Part shown: positions 10,224 through 59,108 of the stretch, piece by piece
How the letters are laid out: every line of letters begins with the position of its first letter
Numbering within the stretch: position 1 is the stretch's first letter
Origin: a phage
Strand: one strand, 5' to 3'
Sequence record: PX104378.1
DNA: 64,000 nucleotides
Program-made: the position numbers and the translations under genes
Notes under the pieces: generated by a model
What the model was told of the DNA's origin: nothing
What the model saw: only the letters and a program-made list of their open reading frames with translations
The model's database searches: none

Positions 10224-10763
10224 TCAAAGGTCGCGATATAGTACATTATGAAAATGAGAACTTGCATTACCAATATTGTAGATAATAAATTCTTCATCCG
10301 GCGCTTGCGCTACAAATTGAGTATGAGCAACCGCCACAACCTTAAAAATACGATCCGTGATCTTGTGTTTAATTTCTGCCCCTACTTCCATAGGAACATA
10401 TTCATTTGTTTCTGTTTCAGTCGCAAAACAGCCATCTTCTTCATAAGCACGAACAAATCGGTCGCACTCAGTACGCTTAACAAATTCAAGAGTATACAAT
10501 TCTCGTGAATTGTCGGTATAGACCAATACAGAATTATTATGATAGCGAATCACATACAGGTTATTATCATCGTCAATTACGCAAAAGCTACGGATTCCTT
10601 CGCCTATACTCCAGCAGATATTAACCACGGTTCCTCTAATAAAAAAACTTTCCTTTAAATTAAAACTAGTCAATGTGCTAGCGTGCATTTTAACAACAAC
10701 ACCATCGCCAATTTCCAGTTTACGAAGTTTAACTTCTTTGCTCAGTACACAAAACATCATCAT
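10224..10763 (-). CDS. hypothetical protein (179 aa)
   Basis: ORF directly downstream of PeSL promoter 10793-10820 and GAGAGGACAAC RBS. Confidence 0.5.
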   Translation of the reverse strand: MMMFCVLSKEVKLRKLEIGDGVVVKMHASTLTSFNLKESFFIRGTVVNICWSIGEGIRSFCVIDDDNNLYVIRYHNNSVLVYTDNSRELYTLEFVKRTECDRFVRAYEEDGCFATETETNEYVPMEVGAEIKHKITDRIFKVVAVAHTQFVAQAPDEEFIIYNIGNASSHFHNVLYRDL

Positions 10764-35959: not shown

Positions 35960-36001
35960 TTTGATACTCCTTAGTAGTTCGTGTTTCGTTTCGATGGGTG
36001 T

Positions 36002-36030
36002 ATTATGCTATACACCCTCTCGCGTGTCAA
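36002..36030 (-). promoter_or_regulatory. PeSL-type early promoter (TTGACA-N17-CATAAT)
   Basis: Leader ACACCCATCGAAACGAAACAC identical to copies at 36980 and 38966. Confidence 0.65.
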
Positions 36031-36039
36031 CAACTTTTT

Positions 36040-36228
36040 TTAGTCTTTTTTCATAATTTCTAGAGCAGTTTCTACAGCACCTTTCCAACCTTCCCACATA
36101 ATGGACATAGTAAGGAAGTTAAAGCACCCGCAGGAATCAACCTTTTTAGAGATAAACCATTCTACAAACGCTTCGCTCATACCATGCTCTTTAGCGGATT
36201 CGCGTAATTGTTCAATTTGGTCTTCCAT
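36040..36228 (-). CDS. hypothetical protein (62 aa)
   Basis: ATG after GAGGTGATACT RBS. Confidence 0.45.
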   Translation of the reverse strand: MEDQIEQLRESAKEHGMSEAFVEWFISKKVDSCGCFNFLTMSIMWEGWKGAVETALEIMKKD

Positions 36229-36682: not shown

Positions 36683-36711
36683 TTTGATTCTCCTGTTCAG
36701 TTGATGGTTGT

Positions 36712-36740
36712 ATTGTAGGGGAGTTATCCTCCCCTGTCAA
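36712..36740 (-). promoter_or_regulatory. PeSL-type early promoter (TTGACA-N17-TACAAT) with hairpin spacer
   Basis: Spacer GGGGAGGATAACTCCCC palindromic. Confidence 0.6.
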
Positions 36741-36748
36741 CACTTTTA

Positions 36749-36934
36749 TCAGAAATATGCAATATAGTTTGCCAGTCCTACAGAGTCATCATTCGGCATT
36801 GCTTTTACTGCCAGTTCAAACCCTGCTTCAACTTTCTGTTTAGCGGATTCTTCGTTATAACCCCAGATTACCAGAATAGCTACTACGTTTTCTTTGCTTA
36901 CTGCTTTCAGTGCTTTAGTGATGCGACGTGCCAT
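36749..36934 (-). CDS. hypothetical protein (61 aa)
   Basis: ATG after PeSL leader GGAGAATCAAATT; promoter 36980-37008. Confidence 0.5.
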   Translation of the reverse strand: MARRITKALKAVSKENVVAILVIWGYNEESAKQKVEAGFELAVKAMPNDDSVGLANYIAYF

Positions 36935-36979
36935 AATTTGATTCTCCGTTTAAGAAAGTGTGTTTCGTTTCGATGGGTG

Positions 36980-37008
36980 TATTATGCTATAGGCCGGATC
37001 TGGTGTCA
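36980..37008 (-). promoter_or_regulatory. PeSL-type early promoter (TTGACA-N17-CATAAT)
   Basis: Leader ACACCCATCGAAACGAAACACAC and GGAGAATCAAATT RBS. Confidence 0.65.
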
Positions 37009-37042
37009 ACAACTTTTTTAAAAAAATTTTAGGCAATAAAAA

Positions 37043-37062
37043 AGCCACTCCGAAGAGTGGCT
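37043..37062 (-). terminator. intrinsic terminator
   Basis: Perfect 8-bp stem AGCCACTC/GAGTGGCT, loop CGAA (TTCG on minus), followed by T6 on minus strand. Confidence 0.7.
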
Positions 37063-37210
37063 TATAGGGAAGGTAGCGAATCTTCCTTGTCTCCAACCTG
37101 CTAGCGGCCTAGCAAGTGAATGCTTTAGCGTACCGGATAGCCCACATACGCTGTAATAAATGCGGCTAGGTGACGTCCAAATCATTCTAACCGCGCTGTC
37201 TTTAGTTCAC
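37063..37210 (-). ncRNA. candidate small non-coding RNA or structured leader (~150 nt), speculative
   Basis: ORF-free stretch bounded by a late-promoter match (37214-37221) and intrinsic terminator (37043-37062); contains internal inverted repeats; not a canonical tRNA. Confidence 0.25.
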
Positions 37211-37212
37211 TA

Positions 37213-37431
37213 TTATTTATATCGCTTTCTCTCGCGACGTTTTTGATCTTCTTCCTTGATAGAGTTAAATGCATCAAAAAGACACATGACACTAATAATA
37301 AACATAACCGTATTTTCTACGATATCCCACGGCTTCGCATCAGTACAGATCCCCCAAACGGTAAGAAATGCAAATAAGGCAGAAGAGATCACAAGAATGA
37401 TACTTGCTAAGATATAAAAAGTCATTTTCAT
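37213..37431 (-). CDS. small hydrophobic protein (72 aa)
   Basis: TM segment plus basic tail. Confidence 0.4.
   Translation of the reverse strand: MKMTFYILASIILVISSALFAFLTVWGICTDAKPWDIVENTVMFIISVMCLFDAFNSIKEEDQKRRERKRYK
37214..37221 (-). promoter_or_regulatory. T4-type late promoter TATAAATA (minus strand)
   Basis: Exact TATAAATA on minus strand overlapping the stop codon of ORF 37213-37431. Confidence 0.45.
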
Positions 37432-38483: not shown

Positions 38484-38515
38484 TTTGATTCTCCTTTCGT
38501 TTGTTTGTGGGGGGT

Positions 38516-38544
38516 ATCTTACTACCCCCGTTTCATGTTGTCAA
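38516..38544 (-). promoter_or_regulatory. PeSL-type early promoter (TTGACA-N17-TAAGAT) with hairpin
   Basis: GGGGGTAGTAAGATACCCCCC hairpin; GGAGAATCAAA RBS before ATG 38483. Confidence 0.6.
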
Positions 38545-38550
38545 CTATTT

Positions 38551-38928
38551 TTAAGAATATTTTACTTCGTCTACAATGTCTTTCATGACATTGATTTCCA
38601 TTCCGGTCAGAACACGTTGGAACATGTGCTGCACATACGCTTTCAGGTATTCATTTGATGGCTTGCTATCGAAAGTCTTTTTAGTGTAGTAGTCATCACC
38701 GAAAGCTACTGTAATTACATTTTCGTCGTCGTTCCAAGCGATATAAGCAAATTTGCCGTTATCCCAGAAGCGAGCACTAATTGCTACTTTTGTTGAATCG
38801 AATCCTACTTCGCTGTGAGATTCAAGAACTACTTGCGTGCCAGTTTCTTTATGAATGTAGTAGCGGGATACTAAGTCAAAGTTACGGGTGTAGTGACATT
38901 CGAATTTATCTTTAAACATCATCATCAT
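38551..38928 (-). CDS. hypothetical protein (125 aa)
   Basis: Start at ATG 38928 after PeSL leader; promoter 38966-38994. Confidence 0.5.
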   Translation of the reverse strand: MMMMFKDKFECHYTRNFDLVSRYYIHKETGTQVVLESHSEVGFDSTKVAISARFWDNGKFAYIAWNDDENVITVAFGDDYYTKKTFDSKPSNEYLKAYVQHMFQRVLTGMEINVMKDIVDEVKYS

Positions 38929-38965
38929 TTTGATTCTCCTAAGTGTGTTTCGTTTCGATATGTGC

Positions 38966-38994
38966 ATTATGCTATAGTCGTTTATGGTTGTCAA
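38966..38994 (-). promoter_or_regulatory. PeSL-type early promoter (TTGACA-N17-CATAAT)
   Basis: Leader ACATATCGAAACGAAACACAC and GGAGAATCAAA RBS before ATG 38928. Confidence 0.65.
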
Positions 38995-39011
38995 CACCTA
39001 AAAACAAAAAA

Positions 39012-39037: not shown

Positions 39038-39508
39038 TTACAGTTTGGTCGTCCACTCCAGGTCTAGATCTTCGACATACTCATGAGATCGGACAATCTC
39101 TAAATCGAACTCTAGGTCAGTGCCAAATTTACGCGCACCAACATCATAAGAAAGCGTGATATGCGGTACATATTCAGGATAATCCCACGTCGCACCTAAA
39201 GCAGTGCCGATATCGTGTCTGAATTGCATGTAGTCGCTTTCAAATGCCAGCACAAGCGCATTAGTACCGGATTGAGTTTCAAACACTTTCAGATGACACA
39301 GAGAGCCTAAAAACTTTTCACCCTCTTCCGGGATAAACGGAACATAGACACGAGAATATAAGATAGTGCTATGCAGTTTATCACGAGGAACGGCATTAGG
39401 CAGATCGTAGAACTCCTGCAATTTTTCAATGCGGTCTAGTGTATCCTCAGTGAATTTAACCGCCGCATATGTACCTTTAACGGATTCTCGAAACGGGGTC
39501 ATAATCAA
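39038..39508 (-). CDS. 57B: gp57B-like protein, 2H phosphoesterase superfamily
   Basis: Two H-x-T/S-x motifs (HSTILYS, HITLSYD) ~90 aa apart; position immediately downstream of 57A as in T4. Confidence 0.7.
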   Translation of the reverse strand: MIMTPFRESVKGTYAAVKFTEDTLDRIEKLQEFYDLPNAVPRDKLHSTILYSRVYVPFIPEEGEKFLGSLCHLKVFETQSGTNALVLAFESDYMQFRHDIGTALGATWDYPEYVPHITLSYDVGARKFGTDLEFDLEIVRSHEYVEDLDLEWTTKL

Positions 39509-57707: not shown

Positions 57708-59108
57708 ATGGCAAACAATACTATTAACCATGTAAAAGACGATGCTCAATACGTCAAGTTTAACCCTGTAAATGATTGGCCTCAAAGCATTACCAACGTA
57801 CAAGCGGCTTTAGCCGCTATTAATGGATTTGCCGTAAATGGATTACCGGACGCTACGGAAGATACAGCCGGGATCGCTGCAATCGCAACTCAGGAAGAAG
57901 TAAACGACGGTACTGTAGACAATAAGATCGTGACACCAAAAACATTGGCGGTTAAAATGTCACGCCCAGATGCTACAAAAGAAGTAAAGGGTATCACCCG
58001 ATTTGCCACAATGGAAGAATCGCTGCAAGAGAGCAACGAGAACATGGCAATCGGTCCAGATACACTAAACCATTACTTCACCACTAAAAAGGCGTCAGAG
58101 AGCGTTCAGGGGACTATTAAGATATGTTCTCTTGAGGCAGCAAAGATTGGCAGTGATGACACAATGGCAGTAACACCGAAAAAGATGCACACTGCCATTG
58201 CACAGATTGTACCCGGATTAATTCCAGATCAAAACACAGCAACCGAAAGCGCACAGGGTTTAGTTCAGTTAGCAACCAATGCGCAAGTTTTGCAAGGCCA
58301 GATTCGAGAAGGTTTTGCAATTAGCCCTTATGCATTTGCAAATGCTCGCGCCAATGAGAATCAGGCGGGTACTGTTAAGATCGCCAGCCAGTCACAGATG
58401 AATGCTGGTTCAGATGATACTGTAGTTGTTTCTGCTAAGAAGTTTGCAAGCACTAAGGCAACAACGTCTCAATACGGTATTGTTAAACTACGAGACACCG
58501 TAGGAAGTGAGGCTAACGCTGCACTATCAGCAAATGCTAAGGTTCTTCCTAGCACTGGCGGTACGGTAAGCGGAAACGTCTATAAAGGTTCTAACTCAGA
58601 CGGCAACCAGTTTGTTACTAAAAATGAATTAGCGAGTCACGCAATGCCAATTGGTGGTATTATCCTTTCTGGATTCAATGCTGATCGCGGTGACTTCATG
58701 ATCTGTAATGGTCGTTCACTGAATAAAAATCAATATCCGCAATTATTTTCTGCGATTGGTTATACCTTTGGTGGTTCAGGTAACAATTTTAACCTTCCTG
58801 ATATGCGCGGTTTAGTTGCTCGTGGTTGCGATCATGGAAGAAACCTTGATCCAGGCCGTCGATTTGGTTCTTATCAAGAAGACGCAATGCAGAGAATTAC
58901 TGGTAAATTCCCTGTAGCTGACCGCTGGCGCGGTTGGTATGGTGGCGCATTTACTGCACAGCGCGGTCAATGGAGCACGAACTATAAAAACGGTGGGGGT
59001 GATGATTGGGGTTCTACTGTTAACTTTGACTCAGGAAGATCCGTAAGAACGGCTAACGAGACTCGCGTCAAGAGTCTGGCATTAAACTATATCATAAGGG
59101 TGCGCTAA
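57708..59108 (+). CDS. 12: gp12 short tail fibre
   Basis: YVKFNPVNDWPQSITNVQAALAAIN..NGLPDAT and C-terminal NLPDMRGLVARG..LALNYIIRV match T4 gp12. Confidence 0.9.
   Translation: MANNTINHVKDDAQYVKFNPVNDWPQSITNVQAALAAINGFAVNGLPDATEDTAGIAAIATQEEVNDGTVDNKIVTPKTLAVKMSRPDATKEVKGITRFATMEESLQESNENMAIGPDTLNHYFTTKKASESVQGTIKICSLEAAKIGSDDTMAVTPKKMHTAIAQIVPGLIPDQNTATESAQGLVQLATNAQVLQGQIREGFAISPYAFANARANENQAGTVKIASQSQMNAGSDDTVVVSAKKFASTKATTSQYGIVKLRDTVGSEANAALSANAKVLPSTGGTVSGNVYKGSNSDGNQFVTKNELASHAMPIGGIILSGFNADRGDFMICNGRSLNKNQYPQLFSAIGYTFGGSGNNFNLPDMRGLVARGCDHGRNLDPGRRFGSYQEDAMQRITGKFPVADRWRGWYGGAFTAQRGQWSTNYKNGGGDDWGSTVNFDSGRSVRTANETRVKSLALNYIIRVR

Follow-up and report, generated by a model that had tools for sequence, protein, structure and literature searches.

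The window, by which we mean the whole 64,000-nt stretch of phage DNA that was analysed, belongs to an RB49-like phage of the genus Krischvirus, the RB49-type, T4-like coliphages. On its minus strand, the genes are ordered 57B–ORF125–ORF124–dmd–...–ORF118, and the element considered here follows ORF118, ∼2 kb downstream of the 57B homologue. In the direction of transcription, the end of this 72-aa ORF gives way to ∼150 nt without a conserved ORF, then to an intrinsic terminator and finally to an early promoter (Table 1). The latter drives the next gene (61 aa, DUF7421, 36749–36934) and forms the downstream boundary of the element, while itself lying outside the RNA. Early promoters are found upstream of the element, with no terminator between, and it is therefore located inside the early ORF124–dmd–...–ORF118 operon, as its 3' untranslated end; it follows that the unit is not exclusively late. 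The GC content of the element is 50.7%, compared with ∼38% in the flanks, and the phage genome is densely packed (94.5% coding). The region is hyperplastic and mosaic, being rich in promoter-early stem-loop (PeSL) cassettes, a concept introduced elsewhere (PMC2839356), and it belongs to the dmd/Acb1 counter-defence neighbourhood.

Table 1. Features of the element and its flanks, in the direction of transcription
Feature	Coordinates	Strand	Remarks
Upstream 72-aa ORF (RB49p118, phrog_15168, hydrophobic)	37213..37431	-	Last gene of the early operon; the element forms the 3' UTR of this operon
Exact T4-type late-promoter motif TATAAATA (-13 to -6)	37214..37221	-	Overlaps TAT AAA TAA (Tyr-Lys-stop) of the 72-aa ORF
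Predicted late transcription start (G), 6 nt past the motif	37208	-	From the T4 rule (PMC1524935) and the sequence; ∼58,884 in RB49
Predicted non-coding RNA, ∼171 nt: 14-nt unpaired 5' end, H1–H4, terminator hairpin, U-tail	37036..37208	-	Fold, conservation, ORFs broken
Hairpin H1, 8-bp stem GCGGUUAG/CUAGCCGC plus 4-bp apical extension	37162..37194	-	Fold
55-aa ATG ORF	37018-37185	-	Runs through the terminator; intact in only 2/19 variants
Hairpin H2, 7-bp stem AGCGUAU/GUACGCU	37127..37152	-	Hypervariable loop: substitutions and 1–2-nt indels
Hairpin H3, 8-bp stem CUUGCUAG/CUAGCAGG, loop GCCG	37097..37116	-	Invariant
48-aa TTG ORF	36950-37096	-	Runs through the terminator; frameshifted in 3 variants
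Unpaired GGAG, H3–H4 linker	37091..37094	-	Might be cut by RegB endoribonuclease in early transcripts
Hairpin H4, 5-bp stem GGAAG/CUUCC, 9-nt loop AUUCGCUAC	37068..37086	-	Fold
Intrinsic terminator, 8–9-bp stem, UUCG loop, U6-A-UU tail	37036..37063	-	Stem 37063-37042
Early sigma-70-type promoter (TTGACA-17-CATAAT), repeated PeSL-type cassette	36981..37009	-	Pe:58699, score 43.6

A preliminary description of this locus had reported an exact late-promoter match on the minus strand at 37214–37221, and the motif is indeed present there. In T4, TATAAATA occupies positions −13 to −6 with respect to the transcription start (PMC1524935), and the gene for gp55, the late sigma factor, is annotated in RB49. 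Taken by itself, the number of motifs in the window is uninformative (4, against 6.8 ± 2.4 in shuffled sequences). The placement, however, is far from random. Across a complete krischvirus genome there are 14 exact copies, and the other 13 all lie ∼21–61 nt upstream of an ATG on the same strand: 11 precede called genes that are 108 aa or longer, one precedes rI and one only a 9-aa ORF, the motif at 37221–37214 being one of the two in the genome with no substantial ORF behind it. The second atypical late motif is located behind the major capsid gene (OZ035808 10546). Within the coding interiors of that same genome the motif does not occur at all, although ∼13 copies would be expected under a codon-shuffle null. 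From the placement of the other 13 copies and this absence, we infer that the motif at 37221–37214 is probably a working late promoter. Moreover, it is retained in 18 of the 19 distinct variants of the element, even though one synonymous change would destroy it, and two of the 13 other copies likewise overlap a TAT-AAA-TAA gene end. No gene starts ∼20–60 nt downstream of it; 277 nt separate it from the next start on the same strand, which lies past both the terminator and the early promoter, and the unit is, therefore, ORF-free. More generally, an exact TATAAATA proves to be an almost perfect predictor of late promoters in Krischvirus, coding interiors having been cleared of the motif on both strands. 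The late promoters listed by Nolan et al. (2006) do not include one at this site, and in one metagenome contig (L013) exactly TATAAATA is deleted and the RNA body is retained.

The strong, perfect 8-bp intrinsic terminator that had been proposed at 37043–37062 is confirmed: its stem comprises 9 bp, with five GC pairs, closed by a UUCG loop and followed by T6-A-TT. The same terminator was predicted independently by Nolan et al. (2006), using TransTerm, with a score of 100 (RB49 58720–58737). ARNOLD assigns it −16.1 kcal/mol in both G37-3 and G2248, it is annotated in several GenBank records, and in FL15 its loop is flipped from UUCG to CGAA with the stem intact. The ORF125/57B terminator sits straight after its own gene; here, 150 nt with four hairpins precede the terminator, a hairpin load far beyond that of the other terminators of the genome. 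It counts against the RNA-gene reading given below that a copy of TATAAATA with a strong terminator 170 nt behind it occupies the least harmful kind of site for a non-functional motif to persist.

Based on these features, the best explanation for the element, to which we would attach a probability of roughly 0.55, is that it encodes a non-coding RNA of ∼171 nt with two sources: late in infection it would come from a promoter of its own, whereas early on it would be the 3' end of the dmd operon transcript. This RNA gene (37208–37036, minus strand) would be specific to RB49-like phages (Krischvirus). By the early route, host sigma-70 polymerase would initiate at the early promoters upstream of ORF125/ORF124, proceed through dmd–ORF118 and halt at the intrinsic terminator, with the element forming the 3' untranslated end of the mRNA. 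By the late route, the gp55 polymerase would start at TATAAATA within the Tyr-Lys-stop end of ORF118, with its +1 G at 37208, and stop at the same terminator, thereby releasing a discrete ORF-free RNA made up of four stem-loops (H1–H4), the terminator hairpin and a U-tail.

It is possible, albeit on balance doubtful, that the element is only a structured 3' UTR of the early dmd–ORF118 operon, affording exonuclease protection or aiding termination, with TATAAATA being an inactive or unimportant by-product of the gene end. The element certainly lies within the early transcription unit, the contig that has lost the motif keeps the body, the motif is missing from the published late-promoter list, and the strong terminator nearby would make a stray promoter nearly harmless. 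However, wherever else the motif would be non-functional it has been purged, all of its other copies are at promoter positions, and it persists in all but one of the variants despite being removable by a single synonymous change; additionally, 150 nt and four hairpins far exceed what accompanies the other terminators here. An unlikely explanation is that of a late leader or attenuator, whereby the late promoter would re-express ORF117 onward through partial read-through of the terminator, with the hairpins having a modulating role. The proximity of the next same-strand gene fits this, and a structured leader ending in a terminator is the usual layout of an attenuator; nevertheless, the terminator is strong and invariant, the downstream gene has a very strong early promoter of its own, no anti-terminator pairing with the 5' arm of the terminator is seen in the minimum free energy (MFE), centroid or consensus folds, and no riboswitch or leader family of Rfam is matched.

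The element is found in 59/59 krischvirus records at no less than 96% identity and in seven distinct metagenome or virome contigs, and 19 distinct variants of it are represented. It is single-copy in the genome: a search with the covariance model of the element yielded no second copy there, the runner-up (23 bits) being a look-alike terminator that ends a 404-aa ORF. The conserved block consists of the element, the downstream promoter and ORF117 (93–100% identity), such that the conservation of the element exceeds that of the upstream ORF118, but not that of ORF117. Searches for distant homologues (distant blastn, IMG/VR patterns, metagenomes and a protein search with the 72-aa neighbour) recovered only krischvirus-like sequences that are at least 93% identical; conservation could, therefore, partly reflect recent common descent. 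Among E. coli genomes, plasmids and 185,579 species genomes, the element is absent, save for terminator look-alikes and one chance 21-mer. A host or plasmid origin was considered and rejected, the only matches being to the generic terminator hairpin, as was an origin from a bacterial genome: of two scans, one had no hit and the other only a 21-nt match in Ciceribacter, whose flanks are unrelated and which is about what chance would give.

Internal inverted repeats had been noted previously and are confirmed; the predicted fold arranges them into four hairpins. The loop region of H1 harbours the palindrome GACGUC, and its 12 pairs are invariant across 17 sequences, the one change being C to U in the loop in L008. 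Natural variation among the 19 variants is concentrated in the loop of H2. In the stem of H2, covariation is seen at one pair (G-C, G-U, A-U), and two further pairs go from A-U to G-U and from G-C to G-U, respectively; an apical pair shows G-U, A-U and G-C. A predicted 4-bp lower extension of H3 (UUCA/UGGA) is doubtful, since a C-to-A change disrupts it in OZ035808/kaaroe. In H4, there is one change from A-U to G-U in L008, and PHB13 has an extra C on the 3' side. The unpaired linkers AUUUAUUAC, AAAGCAUUCA and UUGGAGACAA are also conserved. Compared with shuffled sequences, the MFE is moderately better (z = −3.1, or −2.2 once the terminator is removed), and 8 of 200 shuffles fold equally well when the terminator is left out. 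When the named structure is applied to the 17 distinct sequences, 99.9% of cells are paired, a share that falls to 28–46% with slid partners, and all five of the substitution events in the core stems (5/5) preserve pairing (G-C to G-U to A-U, and A-U to G-U). Both-sided covariation is confined to one pair, with 36 of the 44 pairs invariant, and a covariation score as high as that of the element is obtained in 14 of 500 shuffles; the structure test is weak, because the distant-homologue searches returned only such closely similar krischvirus-like sequences. As judged from the comparison of the variants, the element is structured and conserved.

It seems distinctly improbable that the element is a neutral remnant, i.e. 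a decayed cassette or spacer left by PeSL-mediated shuffling and devoid of function. In its favour, the region is hyperplastic, mosaic and rich in PeSL cassettes (PMC2839356), and the 55-aa ORF is still open in both the window phage and RB49; yet the element is kept throughout the 59 genomes of a densely packed phage, its changes cluster in one loop rather than being spread along it, every core-stem substitution preserves pairing, the ORFs have no Pfam or PHROG relatives, and the flanks are considerably poorer in GC. Action at the level of the DNA, for instance as an origin of replication or a site of recombination or protein binding, is very unlikely: the palindromes GACGTC and GCTAGC, three CTAG sites within 150 nt and the adjoining PeSL recombination cassette would be in keeping with it, but the core-stem changes give G-U pairs on the transcribed strand only, and C-A mismatches on the other, meaning that pairing is kept only in RNA from the transcribed strand. 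Furthermore, GC skew does not change locally at the element, which is itself unrepeated.

The claim that ∼150 nt lack a convincing ORF is borne out, both candidate ORFs being broken by stops or frameshifts in most variants and having no Pfam or PHROG family match, whereas all eight of the neighbouring ORFs scanned (8/8) match PHROG. In addition to the frameshifts in the 48-aa ORF (Table 1), a fourth variant carries a non-conservative change from LFGV to LRRV. The ATG of the 55-aa ORF is not preceded by a Shine-Dalgarno sequence and sits within hairpin H1, although the first 10 codons are conserved in all variants but L008. ORFs are annotated across the element in the GenBank records for FL15, Aragogtheria, UPWr_E1 and SFHK24. 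On this evidence, the stretch is non-coding, and the krischvirus ORFs annotated across it in several records are spurious. Despite these annotations and the conserved initial codons, it is thus barely credible that the element specifies a small protein, be it the 55-aa ORF, the 48-aa ORF or a 15-aa N-terminal peptide, MIWTSPSRIYYSVWG, given that most variants interrupt the two long ORFs, which also run through the terminator, that the ATG within H1 has no Shine-Dalgarno sequence before it, and that family matches are lacking.

Regarding known RNAs, the absence of tRNA from the stretch, asserted in the preliminary description, holds for the whole window, in which ARAGORN finds 0 genes, and Rfam yields no tRNA, tmRNA or YrlA-type match even at E ≤ 10. 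Indeed, at gathering thresholds, Rfam 15 gives no matches in the window; the best sub-threshold hits score 23.9 bits, against a threshold of 100, and 22.8 bits, against one of 47, and these are driven by hairpins. The lack of any covariance-model match had been put forward as counting against a small RNA, and for Rfam this is what was found, although this null only shows that the element is a member of no described family. The earlier suggestion that a small RNA or structured leader is plausible is partly supported, by motif specificity, the lack of coding capacity, structure, conservation and the strong terminator.

The T4 rnaC and rnaD RNAs are cut out of the transcript of the tRNA cluster, and rnaC has a tRNA-like T-arm. 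The preliminary description was correct in stating that tRNA and small stable RNA genes occupy this neighbourhood in T4, where they lie on the same strand, 1.4–3.5 kb downstream of 57B, in the order 57B–ipI–trna.2-4–tRNAs–rnaD–rnaC; the location of the element downstream of 57B is a positional analogy only. Like the predicted element RNA, rnaC (species 1, 139 nt) and rnaD (species 2, 119 nt) are small, structured and ORF-free, and, as with the element, their genes share the strand of genes 1–57A–57B and follow these at a distance of a few kb. By contrast, the element RNA has no T-arm of the kind seen in rnaC, and would have its own late promoter and intrinsic terminator, in which it differs from both T4 RNAs. 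Homology to rnaC/rnaD was rejected (local alignment score of 16 against a shuffle mean of ∼15), and the covariance model of the element found zero matches in the T4 tRNA/rnaC/rnaD locus. RB49 has neither tRNA genes nor rnaC/rnaD and, therefore, the element is the sole candidate for an RNA gene in the corresponding region.

The predicted RNA shares its architecture with terminator-ended sRNAs of bacteria and phages, among them the Hfq/ProQ clients derived from 3' UTRs: the 5' segment is unpaired, hairpins follow internally, and an A/U-rich spacer leads to a GC-rich terminator hairpin with a U-tail of six or more residues. A terminator hairpin combined with a U-tail and an A/U-rich spacer is the module recognised by Hfq/ProQ-type chaperones, and an architecture of this type is present (CUAUAA-hairpin-UUUUUUAUU), the likeness being in architecture only. 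The combination of an mRNA 3' end with a predicted internal promoter at the end of the upstream coding sequence corresponds to the 'type I' layout of 3'-UTR sRNAs, but the promoter predicted for the element is of the phage late-sigma (gp55) type, as opposed to the host type. The PeSL cassettes of RB49 and phi1 (Arbiol et al., 2010) share the same hyperplastic early region, and the early promoter at 37009–36981 belongs to this cassette family. However, PeSLs are DNA recombination and regulatory cassettes rather than RNA genes, and the body and hairpins of the element are unrepeated in the genome and much longer than a PeSL stem-loop; the element is not a member of the family, given that the repeats cover 36950–37028 (promoter and 5' UTR) and not 37040–37212. 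ColE1 RNAI also consists of three consecutive hairpins, the last being a terminator, and cmscan aligns H3, H4 and the terminator of the element with it (22.8 bits); nevertheless, this score is far under the gathering threshold (47 bits) and reflects generic hairpin geometry, and the element has no antisense partner on the opposite strand. A mimic of a type III antitoxin (pseudo-ToxI, with tandem repeats of ∼34–36 nt) was likewise rejected, there being no tandem or direct repeats in the element.

If the non-coding RNA is produced as proposed, its action would probably be in trans, through base pairing as a riboregulator or through the binding of a protein. A search of the phage genome for antisense targets gave nothing above the shuffle background, the best duplex at a translation start scoring −49, against −47.5 ± 3.2 for shuffles, although this is a crude test, because the folding of long sequences gives unrealistic gapped duplexes. 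No complementarity to the RNA of 13 nt or longer was found in the phage genome, nor was extended complementarity found to E. coli.

T4-type phages are the best-studied lytic phages, and a folded RNA of this sort looks like a kind so far undescribed for them; a literature search for small RNAs or transcriptomes of RB49 or other krischviruses found nothing relevant. We would tentatively go further, while regarding this as a speculative extension, and propose that the element specifies a small regulatory RNA of the late (gp55-dependent) class, the first from any T4-type phage, i.e. a trans riboregulator or a decoy for a protein or defence system, which would be present throughout the infection and boosted late. 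According to a review from 2010, T4 lacked any functionally characterised small RNA acting in trans, and what rnaC and rnaD do was likewise unknown (PMC3014915); a gp55-dependent regulatory RNA, if true, would fill this gap. The element RNA might also functionally replace the rnaC/rnaD-type RNAs that are missing from RB49. If real, such an RNA gene, conserved but unannotated and served by a late-sigma promoter, would provide a concrete entry point to regulatory RNA in T4-type phages. Finally, RegB cleaves unpaired GGAG, and the regB gene is present in RB49 (PMC3014915); the GGAG in the linker between H3 and H4 may, therefore, be a site for this endoribonuclease in the early transcript.

The element considered here (window 37208-37036, minus strand, the coding strand of the genes around it) falls within what in RB49 is an unannotated 278-bp gap between RB49p118, a 72-aa ORF (ORF118), and RB49p117 (ORF117). 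The surrounding 3.5 kb show 97-98% identity to 59 GenBank Krischvirus phages (RB49, phi1, JSE, GEC-3S and others), and upstream lie, in order, gene 1, 57A, 57B, two ORFs, dmd and five small ORFs. The exact late-promoter motif of T4 type (TATAAATA), the ~150 nt without a convincing ORF, the internal inverted repeats and the terminator named in the preliminary description are all present. The sequence places the element within the early dmd-ORF118 transcription unit, with the strong terminator at its end, and makes it at least a structured 3' UTR; moreover, the late promoter at its 5' edge probably fires, releasing a discrete, ORF-free RNA of ~171 nt. We put the probability of a discrete non-coding RNA gene at this place at roughly 0.55, and slightly favour the view that the element is a phage small non-coding RNA, the support being computational and drawn from one narrow genus.

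Coordinates of the element's features and of its immediate surroundings
Feature	Window position	Strand	Remarks
Late-promoter motif TATAAATA	37221-37214	-	formed by codons TAT-AAA-TAA ending the 72-aa ORF 37213-37431
Hairpin H1	37194-37162	-	predicted fold
Hairpin H2	37152-37127	-	predicted fold
Hairpin H3	37116-37097	-	predicted fold
Hairpin H4	37086-37068	-	predicted fold
Terminator hairpin	37063-37042	-	9 bp, UUCG loop, then T6-A-TT
Overlapping ORF, 55 aa	37018-37185	-	ATG 37185; runs through terminator
Overlapping ORF, 48 aa	36950-37096	-	TTG 37096; runs through terminator
Early promoter	37009-36981	-	near-consensus TTGACA-17-CATAAT, ahead of 61-aa DUF7421 gene
DUF7421 gene, 61 aa (RB49p117)	36749-36934	-	downstream of early promoter

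The window contains four copies of TATAAATA (versus 6.8 +/- 2.4 in shuffles), a count that is uninformative alone; what matters is placement. The other three copies (27015, 43553 and 54362) stand ~28-33 nt before an ATG with a Shine-Dalgarno sequence, the genes being rI and two structural genes. The complete krischvirus genome OZ035808 (162,105 bp) has 14 exact matches, and all 13 others lie ~21-61 nt upstream of a same-strand ATG: behind 11 of them are called genes of 108 aa or more, behind one is rI and behind one (10546) only a 9-aa ORF. In two of the 13, the motif overlaps a gene end TAT-AAA-TAA, the same arrangement as at the element. When codons were shuffled within the 254 predicted genes of OZ035808, 13.0 matches were expected in coding sequence (4.7 sense and 8.4 antisense), as against none observed in coding interiors on either strand, four raw hits (two gene-end promoters and two artefactual ORFs of the crude gene map) having been discounted. 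Evidently the motif has been removed wherever it is unwanted, which makes the 8-mer alone an almost perfect predictor of late promoters in krischviruses.

The motif at the element is kept in 18 of 19 variants, though a single synonymous change would abolish it. This retention weighs against a pure 3' UTR stabiliser, which we consider plausible if unlikely; a caveat to the promoter reading is that a stray motif is least costly where a strong terminator closely follows the promoter. The motif at the element is also one of two in the genome without a substantial ORF behind, the next same-strand gene being 277 nt away, beyond both the terminator and the early promoter; a late leader or attenuator, which would draw on the same late promoter, is improbable. 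In T4, the late motif spans -13 to -6 (PMC1524935), and by this rule the late start would be the G at 37208, giving the RNA of ~171 nt; the activity of the promoter we infer from the sequence. Nolan et al. (2006) gave 17 late promoters for RB49, this site not being among them, and already predicted both the terminator (RB49 58720-58737, 'ORF117c<--ORF118c', score 100) and the early promoter (Pe:58699). A 14-nt deletion in metagenome contig L013 takes out exactly TATAAATAATAG, with the RNA body retained; the deletion (MAVA01000028.1, 3330-3345) is accompanied by two extra A in an A-run, frameshifting the ORF118 C-terminus, and the contig may reflect genuine natural variation or a misassembly.

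The minus-strand RNA is predicted to fold into four hairpins plus the terminator, none of 200 shuffles having as good an energy (z = -3.1); without the terminator, 8 of 200 are as good (z = -2.2). A further 4 bp predicted to extend H3 at its base should be discarded, being disrupted in one lineage. Among the 19 distinct variants (from GenBank phages, IMG/VR, metagenomes and contigs reached via a neighbouring protein), H1, H3 and the terminator stem are invariant, and the H2 loop is the main site of substitutions and indels. All five core-stem substitution events preserve pairing: G-C to G-U to A-U, A-U to G-U and G-C to G-U in the H2 stem, and one A-U to G-U in H4; an apical H2 pair occurs as G-U, A-U and G-C. 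The proposal of a small RNA or structured leader is upheld in part and sharpened by the non-coding character, the fold and the promoter placement. Formal covariation support for the stems is thin: a single pair varies in both partners, no change occurs in 36 of the 44 pairs, and a score as high as the real one turns up in 14 of 500 column shuffles. Identity falls to 79-87% for ORF118 in contigs in which it stays at 93-97% for the element body, an argument from conservation that is only half valid, because the downstream promoter and ORF117 are as conserved as the body and the region is mosaic. A neutral remnant, against which the preserved pairing speaks, we rate as marginally less probable again than a leader. 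The wobble changes keep the pairs only in transcribed-strand RNA, and an element acting at the DNA level is very improbable. The GC content of the stretch is 50.7% versus ~38% in the flanks.

That the stretch encodes a small protein is hardly credible. Two overlapping ORFs can be drawn, and a few GenBank records carry 'hypothetical protein' ORFs across it (XAO14449.1, WWD12111.1, WWT36913.1 and XHY53300.1; one on the opposite strand). Among the 19 variants, the window phage and RB49/GEC-3S alone keep the 55-aa ORF open, a stop or 1-2-nt indels interrupting it elsewhere; three variants carry a frameshift in the 48-aa ORF, and the terminator-loop flip changes that ORF non-conservatively from LFGV to LRRV. 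Neither matches Pfam or PHROGs, whereas each of the eight neighbouring ORFs scanned can be assigned to a PHROG family. The annotated ORFs are very likely spurious, because they are broken in most relatives and lack family matches, and the stretch between ORF118 and the terminator is non-coding.

In line with the preliminary description, in which no canonical tRNA cloverleaf was found, ARAGORN finds neither tRNA nor tmRNA in the window, and RB49 is without tRNA genes (PMC1524935). The suggested covariance search for a known family had a negative outcome, Rfam giving no match at gathering thresholds and, at E<=10, only hairpin-geometry matches (EF3314_EF3315, 23.9 bits, threshold 100; RNAI, 22.8, threshold 47). 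The comparison with T4 holds for position, rnaC/rnaD being found at the equivalent location, on the same strand and a few kb beyond 57B, but not for sequence, as there is no similarity and the element's covariance model finds no match at that locus. Membership of an Rfam family, a tRNA-like RNA, an rnaC/rnaD homologue and a PeSL (promoter-early stem-loop) repeat are all excluded. E. coli, plasmids and other bacterial genomes yielded no counterpart, and in the literature searched no small RNA is described for RB49 or other krischviruses; according to a 2010 review, T4 had no functionally characterised small RNA acting in trans, and the review invited candidates from related genomes (PMC3014915).

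The element has the layout of regulatory RNAs that end in a terminator, and of sRNAs derived from a 3' UTR and equipped with an internal promoter: its 5' end is unpaired, conserved single-stranded linkers separate the hairpins, and an A/U-rich spacer precedes the terminator hairpin and U-tail. We have, therefore, tentatively chosen an RNA acting in trans, by base-pairing or protein-binding, as its most likely function, with low confidence; no antisense target stands out in the phage genome. It would work like other promoter-to-terminator small RNA genes, its unusual point being the late-sigma promoter. More speculatively, the unpaired GGAG between H3 and H4 (37094-37091) is a putative RegB site in the early transcript.

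A second atypical TATAAATA lies outside the window, in OZ035808 at 10546-10553 (+), just past a 528-aa major-capsid-like ORF and two terminator hairpins. The motif is followed only by the 9-aa ORF, which has a Shine-Dalgarno sequence; no convincing ORF is seen over the next ~200-370 nt, up to further small ORFs and the next late promoter. This stretch is 90-99% conserved in 58 krischvirus records and may be another late non-coding unit or long leader.

The early promoter and its 5' UTR are members of a repeated PeSL-type cassette family, such cassettes having been described for RB49 and phi1 (PMC2839356), whereas the ~150 nt from stop codon to terminator have no repeat copy anywhere in the genome by repeat analysis or covariance model. 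PeSL-type families are scattered in the window (35982-36049, 36701-36747, 36950-37028, 38496-38563, 38948-39011 and others). The only secondary covariance-model match is a look-alike terminator, CTATCAGCCATCCTTCGGGGTGGCTTTTTG (OZ035808 14519-14550, minus strand), which closes a 404-aa ORF and shares with the element's terminator a CUAU-AGCCA...UGGCU-U5 design. In phage FL15 (970-990; window 37051-37054), the terminator loop is flipped from TTCG to CGAA with the stem intact, a signature of inversion or template switch within the hairpin. Five independent metagenome/SRA contigs (L004, L009, L010, L011 and L012) end 170-250 nt past ORF118, within or shortly beyond the terminator and early-promoter cassette, the repeated cassettes being probable breakpoints of assembly.

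The RefSeq records of RB49 and T4 name the 57B homologue (39038-39508, minus strand; RB49p126) 'RNA ligase'; in related contigs it falls in the Acb1 Pfam family (PF23474) and, with dmd, it makes the neighbourhood rich in counter-defence genes. Finally, relatives of RB49p117 occur in ~117 non-krischvirus phage records, mainly ~50-kb coliphages and mostly at 60-88% protein identity, which points to gene exchange between T4-like and unrelated smaller phages.
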